Of a stretch of 64,000 bases of DNA, positions 2,736 through 25,339 are shown one piece after another. How positions within the stretch are numbered: position 1 is the stretch's first letter; the number at the start of each line of letters is the position of its first letter. The translations under genes and the position numbers were made by a program. The stretch comes from an uncultured Acidobacteriota bacterium (lineage in GTDB: Bacteria; Acidobacteriota; Thermoanaerobaculia; UBA5066). The stretch spans positions 1,568,001 through 1,632,000 of the forward strand of contig CAVZYA010000002.1 in the NCBI GenBank assembly GCA_963779415.1, read 5' to 3'. The notes under the pieces were generated by a model. It was not told where the DNA came from, ran no database searches, and worked only from the letters and a program-made list of their open reading frames with translations.

Positions 2736-2962
2736 GCACGAAGATCCGGATCCGGAACAACGGCCCGCTCGTCGTGGAGGGAGAGGTGACTCTCCTGGAC
2801 GCGGCGGAGACGCCCTTCGGCCTCGGCGGGCGGATGACGGTCAGCCTCTGCCGCTGCGGGCACTCGGCGAACAAACCCTTCTGCGACGGCTCGCACCGGA
2901 CACAGGGGTTCGCGGACTCGTGCGCCGCGAGGGATCTCCCGCCTCCGGCGCCGAAGCCCTGA
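2732..2962 (+). CDS. CDGSH iron-sulfur domain protein
   Basis: MSTKIRIRNNGPL...LCRCGHSANKPFCDGSH; ATGA overlap with the upstream stop. Confidence 0.9.
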   Translation: MSTKIRIRNNGPLVVEGEVTLLDAAETPFGLGGRMTVSLCRCGHSANKPFCDGSHRTQGFADSCAARDLPPPAPKP

Positions 2963-2965
2963 CGG

Positions 2966-4042
2966 CTACTGCGCCCCGACGCGGAAATTGATCACGTCGC
3001 CGTCGGCGACGACGTAGTCCTTTCCCTCCAGCCGGAACGAACCGTGCGCCCGGCAGGCCGCGAGCGAGCCCGCCTCCATCAGCTTCTCGAACGGAACGAC
3101 CTCCGCGCGGATGAACGTCCGCTCGAAGTCGGTGTGGATGACGCCGGCGGCCTTGACCGCGTGCGTCCCGCGCGGGATCGACCAGGCCCGGCACTCGTCC
3201 TCGCCCGCCGTCAGGAACGAGACGAGACCGAGGAGGTCGTAGGCGGCGCGAAGCAGCCGGTCGAGCGCCCGGTCGGGAAGGCCCAGCCCTTTCAGGAACT
3301 CCACCTGGTCCTCGGGCGACATCGCCGCGATCTCCTGCTCGATCGTCGCCGAGACCGCGGAGAAGCCGACCCGCGGCTCGCCTTTCCACTTGTCGAACCT
3401 CGCCCGCGCGATCGCGCCGGGAAGGTCCCCGGCGTCCTTCTCGTCGGCGTTCAGGATGACGAGCATCGGCTTTGCGGTCAGAAGGCCGAAGCCGCGGACC
3501 AGCTTCACCTCGTCCGGCGTCGGCTCGAAGCGGCGGAGCGCCTCCCCCTTTTCCAGCGTCGCCTTGTAGCGGGTCAGAAGCTCCCTCTCGGCCTCCAGCT
3601 CGGGCGTCTTCTTCTTCTGGATGTCCTTCACGACGCGGTCGAGCCGGTTCGTGACGACAGAGAGGTCCGACAGGAGCATCTCGGTCTCCAGGAGCTCGAG
3701 GTCGCGCGCCGGGTCGATCGAGCCTTCGGGGTGCGGGACCGCGTCGGACCCGAAGCCCCGTACGACGACGGCGAGGCCGTCCATCTGGCGCAGCTCAGGG
3801 AGGTTGAGGCTCTGCGCGCCCCCCTTCACGACGCCGGGGACGTCGACGAAGCGGACCGTGGCCGGGGTCTGCTTCTTCGGCTTGAACATCGCCGTCAGCC
3901 GGTCGAGGCGCGGGTCGGGGACGTGGGCGATCCCGACGTGCGCCTCCCGTTTGTGCGGCGCGACGGCGGTGACGTGTCCGGTCAACAGGGAGAAGAGCGT
4001 CGTCTTCCCGGAGAGCTCGAGGCCGAAGATTCCGAATTCCAT
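2966..4042 (-). CDS. ychF: Obg-family ATPase YchF
   Basis: GxxxSGKTT, FVDVPG, AGVIHTDFERTFIRAEV, EGKDYVVADGD. Confidence 0.9.
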   Translation of the reverse strand: MEFGIFGLELSGKTTLFSLLTGHVTAVAPHKREAHVGIAHVPDPRLDRLTAMFKPKKQTPATVRFVDVPGVVKGGAQSLNLPELRQMDGLAVVVRGFGSDAVPHPEGSIDPARDLELLETEMLLSDLSVVTNRLDRVVKDIQKKKTPELEAERELLTRYKATLEKGEALRRFEPTPDEVKLVRGFGLLTAKPMLVILNADEKDAGDLPGAIARARFDKWKGEPRVGFSAVSATIEQEIAAMSPEDQVEFLKGLGLPDRALDRLLRAAYDLLGLVSFLTAGEDECRAWSIPRGTHAVKAAGVIHTDFERTFIRAEVVPFEKLMEAGSLAACRAHGSFRLEGKDYVVADGDVINFRVGAQ

Positions 4043-19544: not shown

Positions 19545-20384
19545 TTAGTTGACACCGCTGTGGATAGGGGCCTGGGCTTCGAAGATGGCCGGAGGAAGGT
19601 ACCCAAGCGACGAATGGAGCCGCTTCTGATTGTAGAAGCGGACGTAGTCGAGGAGGGCCGTCCTGAGTTCGGAGTCGGTCTGGAGCGTCATTCCGAAAAG
19701 GCACTCCGTCTTCAGCGAGTGAAAGAACGACTCCATGTGAGCGTTGTCGTTCATCTGCCGCGGGCGATTCATGCTCTGTAGAAAGCCCCGGCGGGACAGC
19801 GAGGCTCGAAGGTCGAGGGCGGCGTATTCGATTCCCCGGTCGCTGTGGAAGGTGACGCCGGGGGAGGGGCGCCGCCATCGGACGGCGTGAGAGAGGGCGC
19901 GCCGGGTGAGCGAAGCGTCCCGATTCCGGCCCAGGCTCCAGCCGAGGACCCTTCGGGAGTGCCGGTCCATGACGACGGCGAGGTACCACCAGCGGCCGGC
20001 GACCCGGACGTAGGTGACGTCCGCCACCCAGAGCTGGTTCGGGCTCGTTGTCGTGACGCCGTGGACCGTGTTCGGATGCACCCGATAGAACGCTTTCTGA
20101 CCCACCCGCGACCGGCGATAAAGACGGGCCGAGCGGCCCTGGAGTTGCGCCAGCCGCATCAGGCGGGCGACCCTTCGGCGGCCGACCGGGACCCCTTGCC
20201 GCCCGAGTTCCCGCGTCACCCGGGGGCTGCCGTAAAGCCCCCTGGCCTCCTGGAACACCGCGAGAACCCGTTCGGTCATCGCCGCATCAGACGCCGTTCG
20301 GCGGCTCGGTCGTCTGCTCCGCCAGGCATAGAACCCGCCCCGCGTGACGCCGAACCTCCTGCACATCAGGCTCACCGGGAACAA
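19545..20384 (-). CDS. IS3 transposase OrfB (DDE)
   Basis: WVADVTY, HSDRG, DNAHMESFFHSLKTE. Confidence 0.93.
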   Translation of the reverse strand: MFPVSLMCRRFGVTRGGFYAWRSRRPSRRTASDAAMTERVLAVFQEARGLYGSPRVTRELGRQGVPVGRRRVARLMRLAQLQGRSARLYRRSRVGQKAFYRVHPNTVHGVTTTSPNQLWVADVTYVRVAGRWWYLAVVMDRHSRRVLGWSLGRNRDASLTRRALSHAVRWRRPSPGVTFHSDRGIEYAALDLRASLSRRGFLQSMNRPRQMNDNAHMESFFHSLKTECLFGMTLQTDSELRTALLDYVRFYNQKRLHSSLGYLPPAIFEAQAPIHSGVN

Positions 20385-20728
20385 GCTCCGGTTCGCCTCG
20401 AGGAACGCGAAGACGTCCCCCGTAACTCGCGGGCGAACCGGATCGCTCTTTTTAGGAGTTCGTGCTCCATCTTCAGCCGCTTGTACTCGCGCTCAACCTC
20501 CCGTAGCCGTTGGAGCTCACCCACGGCTTTCACGTCCAGAGCCGGCAAGGCACCACGAAGCTCACCGTCCCGAGCCTGCTTGCGCCAGCGCGACAGCATG
20601 AACGGGTGAATGCACAGTGACTCCGTCACGTCCCGGACCAGAACGCCGGGCTGCTGACTCAGTTGAACAGCCCGCAGCTTGAACTCCTGGCTGTAGCTTC
20701 TGACTCTCCGGGGTCCTGCTTTTCCCAT
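20372..20728 (-). CDS. IS3 transposase OrfA (HTH)
   Basis: YSQEFKLRAV...LKMEHELLKRA; A-rich candidate slippery site near 20450. Confidence 0.9.
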   Translation of the reverse strand: MGKAGPRRVRSYSQEFKLRAVQLSQQPGVLVRDVTESLCIHPFMLSRWRKQARDGELRGALPALDVKAVGELQRLREVEREYKRLKMEHELLKRAIRFARELRGTSSRSSRRTGACSR

Positions 20729-20856
20729 CGTGACCTCTCTAGTTAGCTCAGAGTGTCAACGATACCGAAGCAACCTCCGAGTCCGCTGCAACGCGTGGTT
20801 AGACGGCATACGGTGGGGCGATGGCGGTGCGGGATGCAGAGCGACCGCCGCTAGAT

Positions 20857-21129
20857 CTAGGTTGACTGACGCACGGCAGCTGTCTCGTTGCGCTGAGCCG
20901 CCTTGGCGCCGGTATAGATGAACAGCGATACGCCGAGCAATATCGCCGGCAACAGAGTTCCTGCGGCGAGGAGCGGCAGGAAAGATGCGTCCGACGGAAG
21001 GCCCGCCTGGATAAGCAGCACGCGAAGAGCCCAGGCCACGAATGGACATGGGACAGCGAGAATGAACCAGAGACGAGCCCACCGAAAAAGCCGCGACGAT
21101 TTGGACGACGAGGCGTGTTCTCGAAACAT
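20857..21129 (-). CDS. Small two-TM protein, cassette gene
   Basis: ATG just after the GTTAGAC core; lies between two attC sites. Confidence 0.55.
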   Translation of the reverse strand: MFREHASSSKSSRLFRWARLWFILAVPCPFVAWALRVLLIQAGLPSDASFLPLLAAGTLLPAILLGVSLFIYTGAKAAQRNETAAVRQST

Positions 21130-21253
21130 GCCGTCTAACGATAGGCGTTCAGCGGCGAGCGAAGCGAGATGGAATGAGAAGGCCGGCCTCCCGTCGCAGT
21201 CTGAAAATCAGCTGCAGGTCAGACGGGCTCGAGGCCCAGAGAGGAGACCGGCC

Positions 21254-22406
21254 ATGAGGAAGCGTAGCACCGGAGCGGCGACGATGGACCCAACCCCGAA
21301 GAGGACGAGGAGGTACGAAGGGACGGAGACGGAGGGCAGGGTGTCCTCGAGCAACCTGACCGTGGGCGTGGACCTTGGGGATCGGGTGAGCCACGTGTGT
21401 GTGCTGGACTCCAAGGGAGAGATCGTCGAGGAGATGCGTGTGGCAACGACGAGGAGCGGGTTGAGGCGAGCGCTGGGCGGCGAGCGCCTCGGGAAGTGCC
21501 GGATCGCCATGGAGGTCGGGACGCACTCGCCGTGGGTGAGCCGACTGCTCGAAGAGATGGGGCACGAGGTGCTGGTGGCCAACCCGCGCAAGCTGCGGTT
21601 CATCTACCAGAGCCGCGGCAAGACGGACCGGGTGGACGCACGATCGCTGGCGCGGGTGGCGAGGATGGACCCGGCGCTGCTCTCGCCGGTGGAGCATCGG
21701 TGCGAGCCGTTCGCGCAGGACCTGGCCGTGCTGCGGACGAGGGACTTGCTGGTGCGGACCCGGGTGAAGCTGATCGGGCATGCGCGGGGAGCGGTGAAGG
21801 CCACGGGACACCGGTTGAAGGCGAGCTCGACGCGGAGCTTCACCGTCGAGGCCGGACCGATGCTTCCGGAGGAGCTGAAGGAGACGCTGGGGCCCGTCCT
21901 CTCTGCGATCGACGCCGTGTCGGAGCAGATCCGCGCCCTGAACCGGAAGGTTCGCGAGCTGGCGAAGAAGAAGCACCCGGAGACGGAGCTGCTGCGGCAG
22001 GTGCCGGGAGTGGGCTTCATCCTGTCGCTGGCGTTCGTCCTGACGCTGGAGCGAGCGGACAGGTTCGAGAAGAGCCGGATGGTGGGGCCGTACCTCGGGC
22101 TGGTGCCCGGACGCCGGCAGAGCGGCGACAGCGATCCGCAGCTGAGGATCACGAAGGAGGGCGACGACTTCGTGCGCCGCCTGCTGGTCCAGGCAGCCCA
22201 GTACATCCTGGGACCGTTCGGCCCCGACTGTGACCTTCGTCGGTTCGGCCTGGCGCTGGAGGCACGCGGCGGAAGGTACGCCAAGAAGCGAGCCATCGTC
22301 GCCGTGGCCCGGAAGCTGGCGGTCCTTCTGCATCGACTCTGGAGCTCGGGAGAGGTCTACGACCCGGCTCGCCAGGTGCGCCCGGCCCGACGCATCGGCG
22401 GCGTAG
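21254..22406 (+). CDS. IS110-family DEDD transposase/recombinase
   Basis: VGVDLG, MEVG, KTDRVDA, RQSG, AVARKLA; GAGGAG RBS; probable indel near 22370 with true stop TAG at 22404-22406. Confidence 0.88.
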
Positions 22407-22489
22407 AGAACGACGAGAGTTTCTTAGAAAGAAGAGAGAGACGGGAGCCCCGACAGTCGGGAACGGTGAGAAGGAACGCAATACATGGA

Positions 22490-22700
22490 ATCGAATCGAC
22501 GCCCTGTCTGGGCGACTGCGAAGCGGACTCGGGTCCGGAGGGCCATCCGGCTGCTCCAAGAAGACCGACAGCGAGATGGCAGCGCCCTTTCAGCTCGGAC
22601 ACCCTCATGCACCGAGCGCCGCAGCGCGGCGACGAGAGTGCGAATGGAAGCGAGGTGATCGATTCGACGTCCCCAGGGAGACCGAGCCCCCGCTTCTCAC
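22490..22700 (+). ncRNA. Putative bridge/seekRNA of the IS1111 element
   Basis: 3' non-coding end carries matches to the target (22522-22531, 22570-22575) and donor junction (22604-22608, 22644-22650); boundaries approximate. Confidence 0.7.
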
Positions 22701-22751
22701 TTGACACGACCGGGCCTTCTCATGGAAGTCCGCTGCAGCGCGGGGTTAGGC

Positions 22752-23248
22752 GGCAGCGCCAGAAGACGTGGGCGGCGAATAGCCCAGCAGGATGCTGCGC
22801 AAGAAGACGGCCGTCCCGAGGCGTTACCGGAACCGCGACAATGCTGCCCATTCCAAGGGCGGTAACGATGAAGATGGAGAAAGAACAGGAACACGCCCCA
22901 GGCGTCTTCTAGCGGAGGTGGGAAGACCCATCTGAAAGGACGATAAGAGTGGCGTAGAGGGACGACGGTGCCGCCCACAAAGAACGATGCCTCCGAACAG
23001 GAAGCTGTGCCTGATGCTCGACATGCGGAAGGCTCTGAGTTAGAGGCGTCCAGAGGAGTAGGCCAAAGCGGCGACCAGGAATGCTCCCGGATAGCGGAGA
23101 GCGAGAAGACTCGGACGCTCATGAAACCCTGCCGCGCGGAGCGTAACCAGGTTAGGGCGGGATGCCCCAGGACACCCCAAGTAAGGGCGAATGCTGCAAC
23201 GAGCGAATGCTGAAACACGGAGCTTTGTAGAAAGCGAGGTCGCGACAT
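22752..23248 (-). CDS. Cassette 2 hydrophobic hypothetical protein, possibly frameshifted
   Basis: ATG 10 nt after the attC core; hydrophobic stretches in two frames. Confidence 0.4.
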
Positions 23249-23257
23249 GAGGTCGCC

Positions 23258-23337
23258 GCCTAACGATATCGAGTTCAGCGGCGAAGAGGAAGGAGCGCAG
23301 CGACTGACGATGAGTCCGCTGCAATGAGGTGTTAGGC
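23258..23337 (-). repeat. attC site (80 bp)
   Basis: Minus strand GCCTAAC-ACCTCATTGCAGCGGAC...GCCGCTGAACTCGATATC-GTTAGGC. Confidence 0.92.
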
Positions 23338-23725
23338 GGCAGTGGTGGACGAACGAGCAGGGCCTGAATGGCCCGCCAGTGACGCCGGGCTCCGAACATT
23401 GCCCCCGGCCGAGGGAGATGGAGAGAAACGGAGAACGCGCGAGAGAGAGATGGTGCTTTGATTTGGCCGAGGATGACTCGCGAAGCCACGTGAGGTTCGA
23501 AACGGCCCACTGAGCCGCTGGCGATAGCAGATTGCGTGACACGGCAGGCGCGACTTCCTCCCTACAGATTGTGGCGAGGTTTCCTAACGAGTAACCGGAC
23601 GCCGTAAGCACCGCTGCGATACGCGCGTAGTCCGTGGGTTGCAACTCGGTGTCGAGCCAGAATTCCGACAGCGCCTGCCATACAGGCTGACGTCGCTCGA
23701 CATCAAGAAGGGCGTCACTCAGCAC
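23338..23725 (-). CDS. Cassette 1 gene, DUF7079-like, frameshifted near 23500
   Basis: RRQPVWQALSEFWLDTEL...EEVAPAVSRNL. Confidence 0.55.
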
Positions 23726-23936: not shown

Positions 23937-24902
23937 TCAGAGCGCATCGAGGGGGCTCCGGACACCGCGTCCTCCTGCCTGGTTCAGGACGTGAGTGTAG
24001 ATCATCGTGGTCGTCACATCCCGGTGTCCCAGCAGCTCCTGGATGGTCCGGATGTCGTAGCCCCCTTCCAGGAGATGCGTCGCGAAGGAGTGGCGGAAGG
24101 TGTGGCAGCTGACCGACTTCGGGATGCCGGCTTTCCCGGCCGCCTCCTTGACCGCTTTCTGGATGGTCGTCTCGTGAAGATGGTGGCGGCCGGTGCGTCC
24201 GGTGCGCGGATCGGTGCTGAGGCCGGGCGCCGGAAAGGCGTATTGCCAGGCCCACTGCCGGCTCGCGGCCGGGAACTTCCGCGTCAAAGCATCGGGGAGC
24301 CACGTCTCGCCGAGACCGCGCTTGAGATCGGCGTCGTGAAGAGACTTCACCTCGACCAGATGCTGGCGAAGCGTCTCGGAGAGGGAGGCCGGAAGCATCG
24401 TCCGTCGGTCCTTCTGCCCCTTGCCGTCGCGGACGAGGATCTGGTTGAGGGCGAAGTCGAGGTCCTTGACGCGGAGGCGAAGGGCCTCCATCAGCCGCAG
24501 GCCGCTGCCGTAGAGAAGGGTGGCGACGAGGCGCGGGGCGCCGTCGAGGCGGGAGAGGACGGCCTTGACCTCGGCGGGGGTGAGGACGACGGGAAGGCGC
24601 GCGGGGCGGCGGGCGCGGACGACGTCGCCGAGAGACTCGAGCGGCTTCCCGAGGACGTCGCGGTAAAGGAAGAGCAGGGCCGAGAGCGCCTGGTTCTGGG
24701 TGGAGGCGGCCACCTTCTTCTTCACCGCGAGGTCGGTGAGAAAGGCATTGATCTCGGCCTCGCCCATCTCGTCCGGATGGCGCTTGCCGTGGAAGAGGAC
24801 GTACCTTCGGACCCACGCGACGTAGGCCTCCTCGGTCCGCAGGCTGTAGTGTCGCGCGCGGAGGGCGGCGCGGAGGCGGTCGAGAAGGCGGGGCTTGTCC
24901 AT
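23937..24902 (-). CDS. intI: Integron integrase
   Basis: [19 protein letters not shown], IntI-specific insert [48 protein letters not shown]. Confidence 0.96.
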
Positions 24903-24913
24903 GGCGTTGCTTC

Positions 24914-25339
24914 TTACTTCCGTGCCGATCCTGCTCTTTCTTCCCCGCTCTTGCGCTTCGTGCGGCGGCGGGACTCCGGCCGCCGGCGTGGCCGGGCTCC
25001 CTTTGGCCGGGCATGTCTCGGCTCGTAGACGCCGAGCGTCCCCCCGCCGGGGAGGGTGACCCGGGTCAACAGCCCCCAGCCCAGGTTCTGAACGGGACTG
25101 CAAGGAACCCCGTGCCGGGCCATCGCGGAGACGAACGCTTTGGCGTCTTCGCAGATGAAATAGAACTCGTGGAGGTCGTTCTTCCGGGACGGATGAACCG
25201 CCACCTCCGCGGGCGGCAGGCCGAAGATGAGCCAGCTGTCGCCGACATCGACGTGCGGGAGCCGGAGGACGTCCCGAAGGAAGGCCCGGTCGGCCTCGGG
25301 CTTGCGGCTGTAGATGATCGAATGGGCGCCCGTGATCAT
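24914..25339 (-). CDS. VOC/glyoxalase-family protein
   Basis: [11 protein letters not shown]...[15 protein letters not shown]...GWG...LPGGG. Confidence 0.8.

Follow-up and report, generated by a model that had tools for sequence, protein, structure and literature searches.

The closest described systems to the locus reported here are attC-targeting insertion sequences (ISs) of the IS1111 group. According to the accessible parts of Siddiquee et al. (2024, PMC11187229), the seekRNAs of ISKpn4 and ISPst6 were purified with their transposases and that of ISPa25 was analysed, and the portions seen of PMC11208160 give bridge RNAs as predicted in 93% of IS1111 elements. An IS1111-attC group (ISPa21, ISPst6 and relatives; Tetu & Holmes 2008) inserts in the attC sites of cassette arrays, as described in the excerpted text of PMC3001079. 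Here we describe an IS1111-type element in a 64,000-nucleotide stretch of an uncultured Acidobacteriota genome (assembly GCA_963779415.1, contig CAVZYA010000002.1, 1,568,001 to 1,632,000, forward strand), which is called the window and to which all positions refer. It is highly probable that this IS1111-group element was inserted by RNA-guided recombination at an AG core dinucleotide into the apical loop of an attC site in a chromosomal integron. The evidence is the anatomy of the element, a covariation of guide segments with both flanks and ends throughout the family, and the recurrence of relatives at one and the same attC position. In view of the 2024 seekRNA work (PMC11187229, as far as its text was available), the principle is not new for attC-targeting IS1111 elements; what sets it apart, judged from sequence and modelled structure, is the distant lineage (at most 33% identity to plasmid-borne relatives), the insertion at the attC apex and a nested RNA topology.

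Compared by description with ISKpn4, ISPst6 and ISPa25 in the available text of PMC11187229, the window element likewise has a DEDD transposase, sub-terminal repeats and a long non-coding region 3′ of the transposase gene (tnp), and targets attC. Its predicted RNA likewise carries a top-strand match 5′ of a bottom-strand one, with overlap at the insertion point, and the position of its right-target guide (T) 5′ of its left-target guide (B) is the order reported there for IS1111 seekRNAs. The predicted target arm of 78 nt (22510-87) is close to the 82-86-nt peak form of those seekRNAs, and the whole scaffold of ∼150-190 nt to their 148-151-nt long form (bioRxiv 10.1101/2024.04.26.591405, seen in part). 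A difference is that those elements are said to target ‘one end’ of attC, whereas the window element lies in the apical loop. The same holds against the IS1111-attC group in the excerpted PMC3001079: both sit in an attC of a cassette array antisense to the cassettes, but that group inserts near the attC 5′ end and the window element at the apex. Two target classes, those of relatives at 54-58% identity with the right flanks AG-TGGTTAGGC and AG-ACGTTAGGC, do lie 2 nt from an attC core site.

The more distant IS621, as described in the portions seen of PMC11208160 and PMC11208158, resembles the window element in having four guides, namely for left and right target and left and right donor (the left donor guide of the window being tentative), with left guides in top-strand sense and right guides complementary, and in a core dinucleotide common to the guides, except that the left-end guide in the window is without the core. 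The right donor guide is irregular in both, nine RNA bases pairing discontiguously with seven DNA bases in IS621 (PMC11208160). Unlike IS621, the window element carries its RNA in the right rather than the left end, its guide order is reversed, its core is AG instead of CT, and its sub-terminal repeats are long. Its target arm appears nested in the donor loop, compared with two tandem loops in IS621, a comparison made with the published text. The AU after its left-target guide matches the left end, while the handshake guides of IS621 adjoin the right guides.

Reading of 20900-23000 confirmed the element boundaries proposed in a first-pass annotation of the sequence (Table 1). At the left junction, the flank ends in ...GCGAAGCG and is followed by AG, the extension ATGGA and the repeat ATGAGAAGGCC; at the right junction, the repeat GGCCTTCTCAT is followed by GGA, AG and then TCCGCTGCAGCGCGGG-GTTAGGC. 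The sub-terminal inverted repeats of 11 bp, with short extensions, are within the 7-17 bp range of the IS1111 group. A metagenome scan, from which 80 loci were kept of 575 confirmed relatives, found both repeat arms on the contig and conserved in 65 of the 80, the termini being kept across the family. The 15 loci without one arm were dropped and L033 and L038, with an ambiguous right arm, were set aside, leaving 63 relatives with both junctions readable, of which 61 have AG at both junctions, in support of the AG core as first annotated; L046 and L071, with AA or TG instead of AG at the right junction, were dropped before the counts given below. Moreover, a metagenome contig of run X5 matches the left flank up to 21168 and continues with TCCGCTGCAACGCG..GTTAGGC, which by its sequence is an unoccupied site of the same type and backs the boundaries.

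When rejoined, the flanks fold into an imperfect hairpin of 59 nt that is bounded by the inverse core sites GTCTAAC and GTTAGGC. Its apical loop has the AG core at the 3′ edge, and the two core sites are 34 nt and 16 nt away from this core. The predicted fold of the attC + strand is at −29.8 kcal/mol versus −17.2 kcal/mol for the − strand. The integron integrase gene intI lies 1.2 kb from the split attC, and the core sites, the hairpin and this neighbour together bear out the attC location that had been assigned at first sight. Both intI and a neighbouring cassette open reading frame (ORF; 20857-21129) are on the − strand and tnp is on the + strand; the array thus appears to run on the − strand, with the element antisense to it.

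The non-coding region 3′ of tnp comprises 320 nt, from the family stop position 22406 to the right end at 22726, and the last 245 nt of such regions align into one scaffold (MAFFT, A2; 46 of 50 extracted sequences, without L022, L045, L057 and L061, in which an insertion disrupts the 5′ anchor). Within this scaffold, the segment 3′ of a conserved CTGCG varies with the right flank, and the segment 5′ of a conserved GCAG varies with the left flank. These segments are AGCGGACT at 22522-29 (T) and AGCGAG at 22570-75 (B) in the window; among relatives, CTAACCACT, CTAACGTCT, CGGGCAGCT and GCAGCGGACT accompany the right flanks TGGTTAG, ACGTTAG, CTGCCCG and TCCGCTGC, respectively, and the left-flank segments CTGAGCAG, CAGACAG, TACGAAG and GGTCAG each fit the flank of the locus that carries them. 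Among 42 non-redundant loci in 30 target classes, 30 had a T guide matching the core and 5 nt or more of the locus's own right flank, versus 8 of 1584 pairings with foreign flanks, i.e. those of loci with other guides, and 28 had a B guide matching the core and 4 nt or more of the own left flank, versus 29 of 1420 foreign pairings, counts which overstate the number of independent events as the relatives are kin. Both target guides, first picked out from the window alone, are found at conserved single-stranded positions and covary with the flanks, and such covariation in homologs, which had been named as a check, is seen in about 45 metagenomic relatives and extends to the right-end guide below.

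The comparison also refined the extent of the target guides. C22530 lengthens the T-guide pairing by one base into the left flank and is kept in 11 of 11 close relatives, while G22531 is kept in only 3 of 11, so that of the 10-mer originally taken as the guide, 22522-29 and C22530 stand and the last base falls away. In the attC-apex group, the right-target guide copies the 5′ stem arm of attC itself, CAGCGG. In nearly every sequence the B guide is followed by AU, the dinucleotide with which the element's left end opens; the bases A, G and T at 22574, 22575 and 22577 are invariant in all 46 aligned sequences; the third base after the B guide showed no covariation with the left end. When the bases after the T or donor guides were likewise compared with the post-recombination junctions in a handshake-like manner, only the AU after the B guide was conserved.

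For the element's own ends, the right-end donor guide AUGGAAG equals AT, GGA and the core AG of the right end. It keeps a conserved position and changes with the right extension in relatives, as GGC goes with TGGCAG (L048, L049 and L063) and AGA with TAGAAG (L078), so the first-pass proposal of this guide is sustained. For the left end, 5-6 nt starting four bases after a conserved GGAC tend to complement the left extension: CTCAT accompanies ATGAG (L060, L082 and L084), CCCAT ATGGG (L085), CCCAAT ATTGGG (L074), TTCA ATGAA (L048 and L049), CACA ATTGTG (L032), GCCAA ATTGGC (L025) and CCCAG CTGGG (L065), with misses at ATTAGT, ATAGG and three ATTGGG loci. The window segment CTCAT (22604-08), which had been named as the left-end guide, is in the correct loop, 3 nt downstream of this covarying register; its partner there would be ATGAG, with which the repeat invariably starts, leaving no variation for a covariation test. 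As CTCAT is off the family register and matches at chance level by itself, and left-guide covariation is weak, its assignment as left-end guide is not supported.

The guides are borne by a predicted bridge/seekRNA in which the target arm appears, from the modelled fold, to be nested inside a donor multi-branch loop rather than placed in tandem with it. The variable hairpins are misaligned in the MAFFT alignment of 46 sequences; RNAalifold recovered from it only stems that are invariant or align well, and the inner ones were assessed visually and with a script. The outer stem of the target arm is paired in 195 of 215 cells and covaries, with column pair 6/91 being C-G in 26, U-A in 18 and U-G in 2 sequences; its inner stem GGUC 22532-35/GACC 22563-66 (family form GGYC/GRCC) closes a variable hairpin. 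The donor guides flank the GCAC/GUGC stem, whose pairs are invariant in 46 of 46 sequences, so no covariation is seen there, and whose enclosed hairpin varies between relatives. The closing CGCC/GGYG changes on both sides, namely to CGUC/GACG in L039, CACC/GGUG in L054 and UGCC/GGCA in L040. The long outer closing stem varies in sequence by subgroup and keeps its pairing, with a mean duplex energy of −23.95 kcal/mol for own strands versus −16.48 kcal/mol for foreign ones; for 26 of 51 loci, no more than 10% of the foreign strands equal the own strand in pairing. Of the proposal that the four segments would lie in two internal loops, the part on the target guides is supported, since these are in a true internal loop, while the donor guides share a multi-branch loop with the target arm.

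Repeated insertion was seen in a genome of another genus of the same family (G021), which carries seven copies without any difference across 1567 bp; all encode an intact transposase of 384 aa and are 80% identical to the window copy. All seven are in different attC sites at nGCG-AG-TCCGCTGCA, the left flank being AGCG in five and having one mismatch in two. Likewise, the 13 closest metagenome loci are inserted in the same attC motif or a variant of it, so that other copies at unrelated sites, which had been put forward as grounds for rejecting a programmed target, were not what these relatives displayed. In the host genome itself, BLAST with the rejoined site found ∼10 attC-like sites sharing GCGTTCAGCGGCGAGCGnAGCGAGTCCGC, of which one (C1:808636) carries all 12 nt of the target and three match it at 11 positions. 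A search for attC sites in the genome by a simple regular expression gave no match, with a pattern too strict to indicate absence.

Table 1. Features of the IS1111-type element and its surroundings (window positions)
Feature	Position	Strand	Remark
IS1111-type insertion sequence	21167-22726	+	1560 bp; counts one of the two AG core copies
AG core dinucleotide, left copy	21167-21168	+	right copy at 22727-22728
Left terminal extension and sub-terminal inverted repeat	21169-21184	+	ATGGA 21169-73; ATGAGAAGGCC 21174-84
DEDD transposase gene	21254-22406	+	frame from ATG 21254 intact to ∼22377
Predicted bridge/seekRNA	22484-22675	+	∼190 nt; closed by 22491-99/22661-69 and CGCC 22500-03/GGTG 22654-57
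Target-binding arm	22510-22587	+	outer stem GGGCG-A-CUGC 22510-19/GCAG-CGCCC 22579-87
Right-target guide (T)	22522-22530	+	AGCGGACU; complementary to core AG and TCCGCT of the top strand
Left-target guide (B)	22570-22577	+	AGCG and core AG in top-strand sense, then AU
Left-end donor guide region	22600-22608	+	family register ACCCU 22601-05; first-pass CTCAT 22604-08
Inner donor arm	22609-22641	+	GCAC 22609-12/GUGC 22638-41, variable hairpin
Right-end donor guide	22644-22650	+	AUGGAAG
TTGACA, family-conserved	22701-22706	+	∼20 nt inside the right end; family alignment
Right sub-terminal inverted repeat and terminal extension	22713-22726	+	GGCCTTCTCAT 22713-23; GGA 22724-26
Left half of split attC	21133-21166	+	begins with core site GTCTAAC; ends ...GCGAAGCG
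Right half of split attC	22727-22753	+	AG, TCCGCTGCAGCGCGGG, core site GTTAGGC 22745-51
Integron integrase gene intI	23937-25103	-	PF00589 and PF13495; TIGR02249 468 bits, cut-off 265

Based on these features, the 3′ non-coding region (∼22484-22675) would encode a bridge/seekRNA, in which the internal loop of the target arm would present the two target guides, and the donor multi-branch loop would present AUGGAAG for the right end plus core and a weaker guide around 22601-05 for the left end. The RNA-bound DEDD transposase would then join the excised circle (right end-AG-left end, a predicted junction) to the attC target. By analogy with the published work on IS621, ISEc11, ISKpn4 and ISPst6, we infer that the RNA is made and bound by the transposase and that the circle is formed. 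The family-conserved TTGACA may, from its sequence and place, serve as the −35 box of a promoter that the circle junction would complete. The initial notion of an RNA-guided recombinase programmed against attC is thus retained for the right-target, left-target and right-end guides, the AG core and the attC location, and left unsupported for CTCAT as the left-end guide.

A number of results weigh against RNA-guided insertion as read here. At the target guides, the T guide is contiguous with the core for less than 5 nt in 12 of 42 loci, and in several of these 12 the guide fits the flank and the base opposite the core A is not U. Left-end guides match their own ends in 150 of 200 positions (75%) versus 1507 of 2380 (63%) for foreign ends, and in the family register, ACCCT of the window fits its left end ATGGA at only three of five. 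A single-sequence fold of 22407-22740 has no extra stability over shuffles (z = −0.2), the family structure is missing from its minimum-free-energy form, and an Rfam scan of 20500-23500 with E up to 10 yielded no family and two chance-level hits (mir-661 and HgcE). The sequencing runs matched to the stretch included no RNA run, the best DNA run covering 0.27 of the sampled words. A promoter scan of the linear element found no complete sigma-70-type promoter; it gave a single terminator-like site, which is on the opposite strand and does not exceed what shuffles give. The circle junction was absent from the assembled metagenome contigs examined. In the host genome, the 14-nt rejoined target has no exact match elsewhere, and its matches with 1-2 mismatches (79) are fewer than those of a reversed control pattern (186). 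The broken gene end and single copy of the window element, which count on the same side, are taken up below.

It is hardly credible that the four segments match by chance in 320 nt of G+C-rich sequence, and how much the window itself says was estimated by 20000 dinucleotide shuffles of this region. All four were read at the places first reported, namely AGCGGACTCG at 22522-31, AGCGAG at 22570-75, CTCAT at 22604-08 and ATGGAAG at 22644-50. The 6-mer AGCGAG recurred in 37% and the 5-mer CTCAT in 15% of the shuffles, each also having two occurrences in the real sequence; the 10-mer AGCGGACTCG recurred in only 0.27% and the 7-mer ATGGAAG in 2.5%, and all four jointly in none. The window by itself thus supports two of the four segments, AGCGAG and CTCAT being without weight alone, and AGCGAG gains weight by the family comparison whereas CTCAT does not. 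The same scaffold positions of the guides in 46 aligned relatives and their covariation with the flanks contradict chance for three of the four segments, CTCAT alone excepted. It is also very improbable that the segments are DNA-level features, i.e. transposase-binding sites or captured bits of target rather than RNA guides, even though ATGGAAG and the CCCAT-like segment are similar to the termini, as is expected of binding sites, and the lack of an RNA run among the matched sequencing runs would suit such features as well. Guides that change with the flanks in 30 target classes, on stems that keep their pairing by compensatory changes, are a signature of RNA; furthermore, one guide is in top-strand and the other in bottom-strand sense, with overlap at the core, as published (PMC11208160 and PMC11187229, in the parts seen).

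The transposase bears on a further explanation, namely that the window copy is a dead or non-autonomous remnant in which the guides are still readable and transposition was lost with the proper gene end. The protein has the DEDD (RuvC-like) domain PF01548 (75 bits) at the N terminus and PF02371 (63 bits) at the C terminus in Pfam and scores 213 bits against NCBIfam NF033542, ‘IS110 family RNA-guided transposase’ (cut-off 140); GLVPGRRQSG fits the IS1111 motif GL-P----S(t)G given in the accessible text of PMC11187229, and with the sub-terminal inverted repeats and the 3′ non-coding region this substantiates the IS110/IS1111-type identity first assigned. D40, E87, D125, D128 and S290-G291 are invariant in an alignment of 12 sequences and would, by analogy, be the catalytic residues. 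Compared with the G021 copies and metagenome contigs, 2 nt are missing at ∼22377-80: contigs of all four runs have an extra G after 22377 and an extra T after 22380. This loss puts the last ∼9 codons and the family stop TAG 22404-06 out of frame, so the stop assumed there in the first pass is not used in this copy; through the frameshift the frame stays open across the 320-nt RNA region without an in-element stop, leaves the element and ends at 22912. In addition, the window copy is the only full copy in the host genome and its left extension fits its own left-end guide poorly, as above, and it may no longer move by itself. On the other side, the frameshift falls past the last conserved residues (...GEVYDP), where the normal tail is short and variable, leaving intact what are, by analogy, the catalytic parts; the 2-nt gap is in a G+C-rich assembled stretch and may be an assembly error; and the RNA scaffold and three guides are intact. 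A remnant is a possibility to be kept in mind, if a somewhat doubtful one, and it concerns the present state of this copy. With its frame broken near the 3′ end, the window copy is a poor choice as the ortholog for engineering that it had been suggested to be; the intact choice is the seven-copy G021 relative.

Returning to RNA-guided insertion, the relatives tentatively suggest one large uncultured IS1111 lineage, whose target guides have been re-aimed many times with the AG core, ends and scaffold kept, and whose nested RNA could compete with the attC hairpin. Relatives in the protein collection are many, with 55-94% identity and typically 345-388 aa; the best plasmid-borne one reaches 33% identity by tblastn on 72,556 plasmid records, and a scan of the genome collection with a single protein gave only three distant loci, not used further. 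The 30 target classes include at least three attC positions, i.e. next to the core site, in the apical loop, as in the window's own class ...CAGCGGCGAGCGnAGCG-AG-TCCGCTGCA, and on the other arm, as in CCTAACGGCCTCGAGCTA-AG-CTGCCCGG; other classes among the relatives do not resemble attC. As the T guide copies the attC 5′ stem arm, the RNA could compete with or invade the folded attC hairpin used by the integrase. The known mechanism is unchanged by these findings. They indicate that environmental chromosomal integrons, remote from the class 1 integrons of the clinic, have their attC sites colonised by RNA-guided IS1111 elements, each such insertion splitting an attC and probably fusing two cassettes, and they offer a natural series of re-aimed guides on one scaffold, useful for learning mismatch tolerance by guide position.

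The host genome also holds a relic of ∼250 nt, 74% identical, of the 3′ part of a related element, which abuts the same right flank AGTCCGCTGCAGCGCG..GTTAGAG. In this relic (L002:1380-1700; G000 contig C1, ∼751.1-751.4 kb), the target and right-end guides are intact and the 5′ strand of the closing stem is missing. Its homology stops upstream at a tandem pair of the 16-nt repeat GTGACCCCACTATTGC in an A+T-richer stretch, which may be the end of another mobile element. In G021, a degenerate relative with 40-45% identity and 1-3 in-frame TGA codons (C1:2357571-2358642, − strand) lies in the same 30-kb region as four of the seven intact copies, and in L012 a second distant IS110-type frame (2805-3647, 23% identity to the query) lies directly 3′ of the first element on the same contig.

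Around the element, further attC-like sites of the form ...GAGTCCGCTGCAA..GTTAG(A/G)C were seen at 20778-20808 and 23312-23342. The one at 23.3 kb carries GACTGACGATGAG/TCCGCTGCAATGAGGTGTTAGG, close to the flanks of the relatives L013, L015 and L017, which carry the matching left guide CCGAG. The attC sites (20.8-23.3 kb) lie beyond the 3′ end of intI, whose strand the cassette ORF shares; the integrase thus seems to face into its array, whereas in class 1 integrons it faces away. Beside the array, two overlapping ORFs on the − strand (20372-20728 and 19545-20384, the latter with rve/HTH_21 domains) resemble an IS3-family element in their arrangement.

Three further details were recorded. Two ‘skip’ joints (21269 to 21554 and 21271 to 21510), whose metagenome-contig sides are only 25-30 nt long, were left uninterpreted. 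The segment GAAGCGAG at 22647-54 equals the left flank plus core; the nearest relatives, L007 and L008, have GAAGCATG there, and the match was taken as coincidence. Most relatives outside the window's subgroup carry a small conserved hairpin, GGTCGCC-ACG-TCGACC, ∼25-45 nt inside the right end and before the conserved TTGAC, a hairpin that the window's subgroup lacks.

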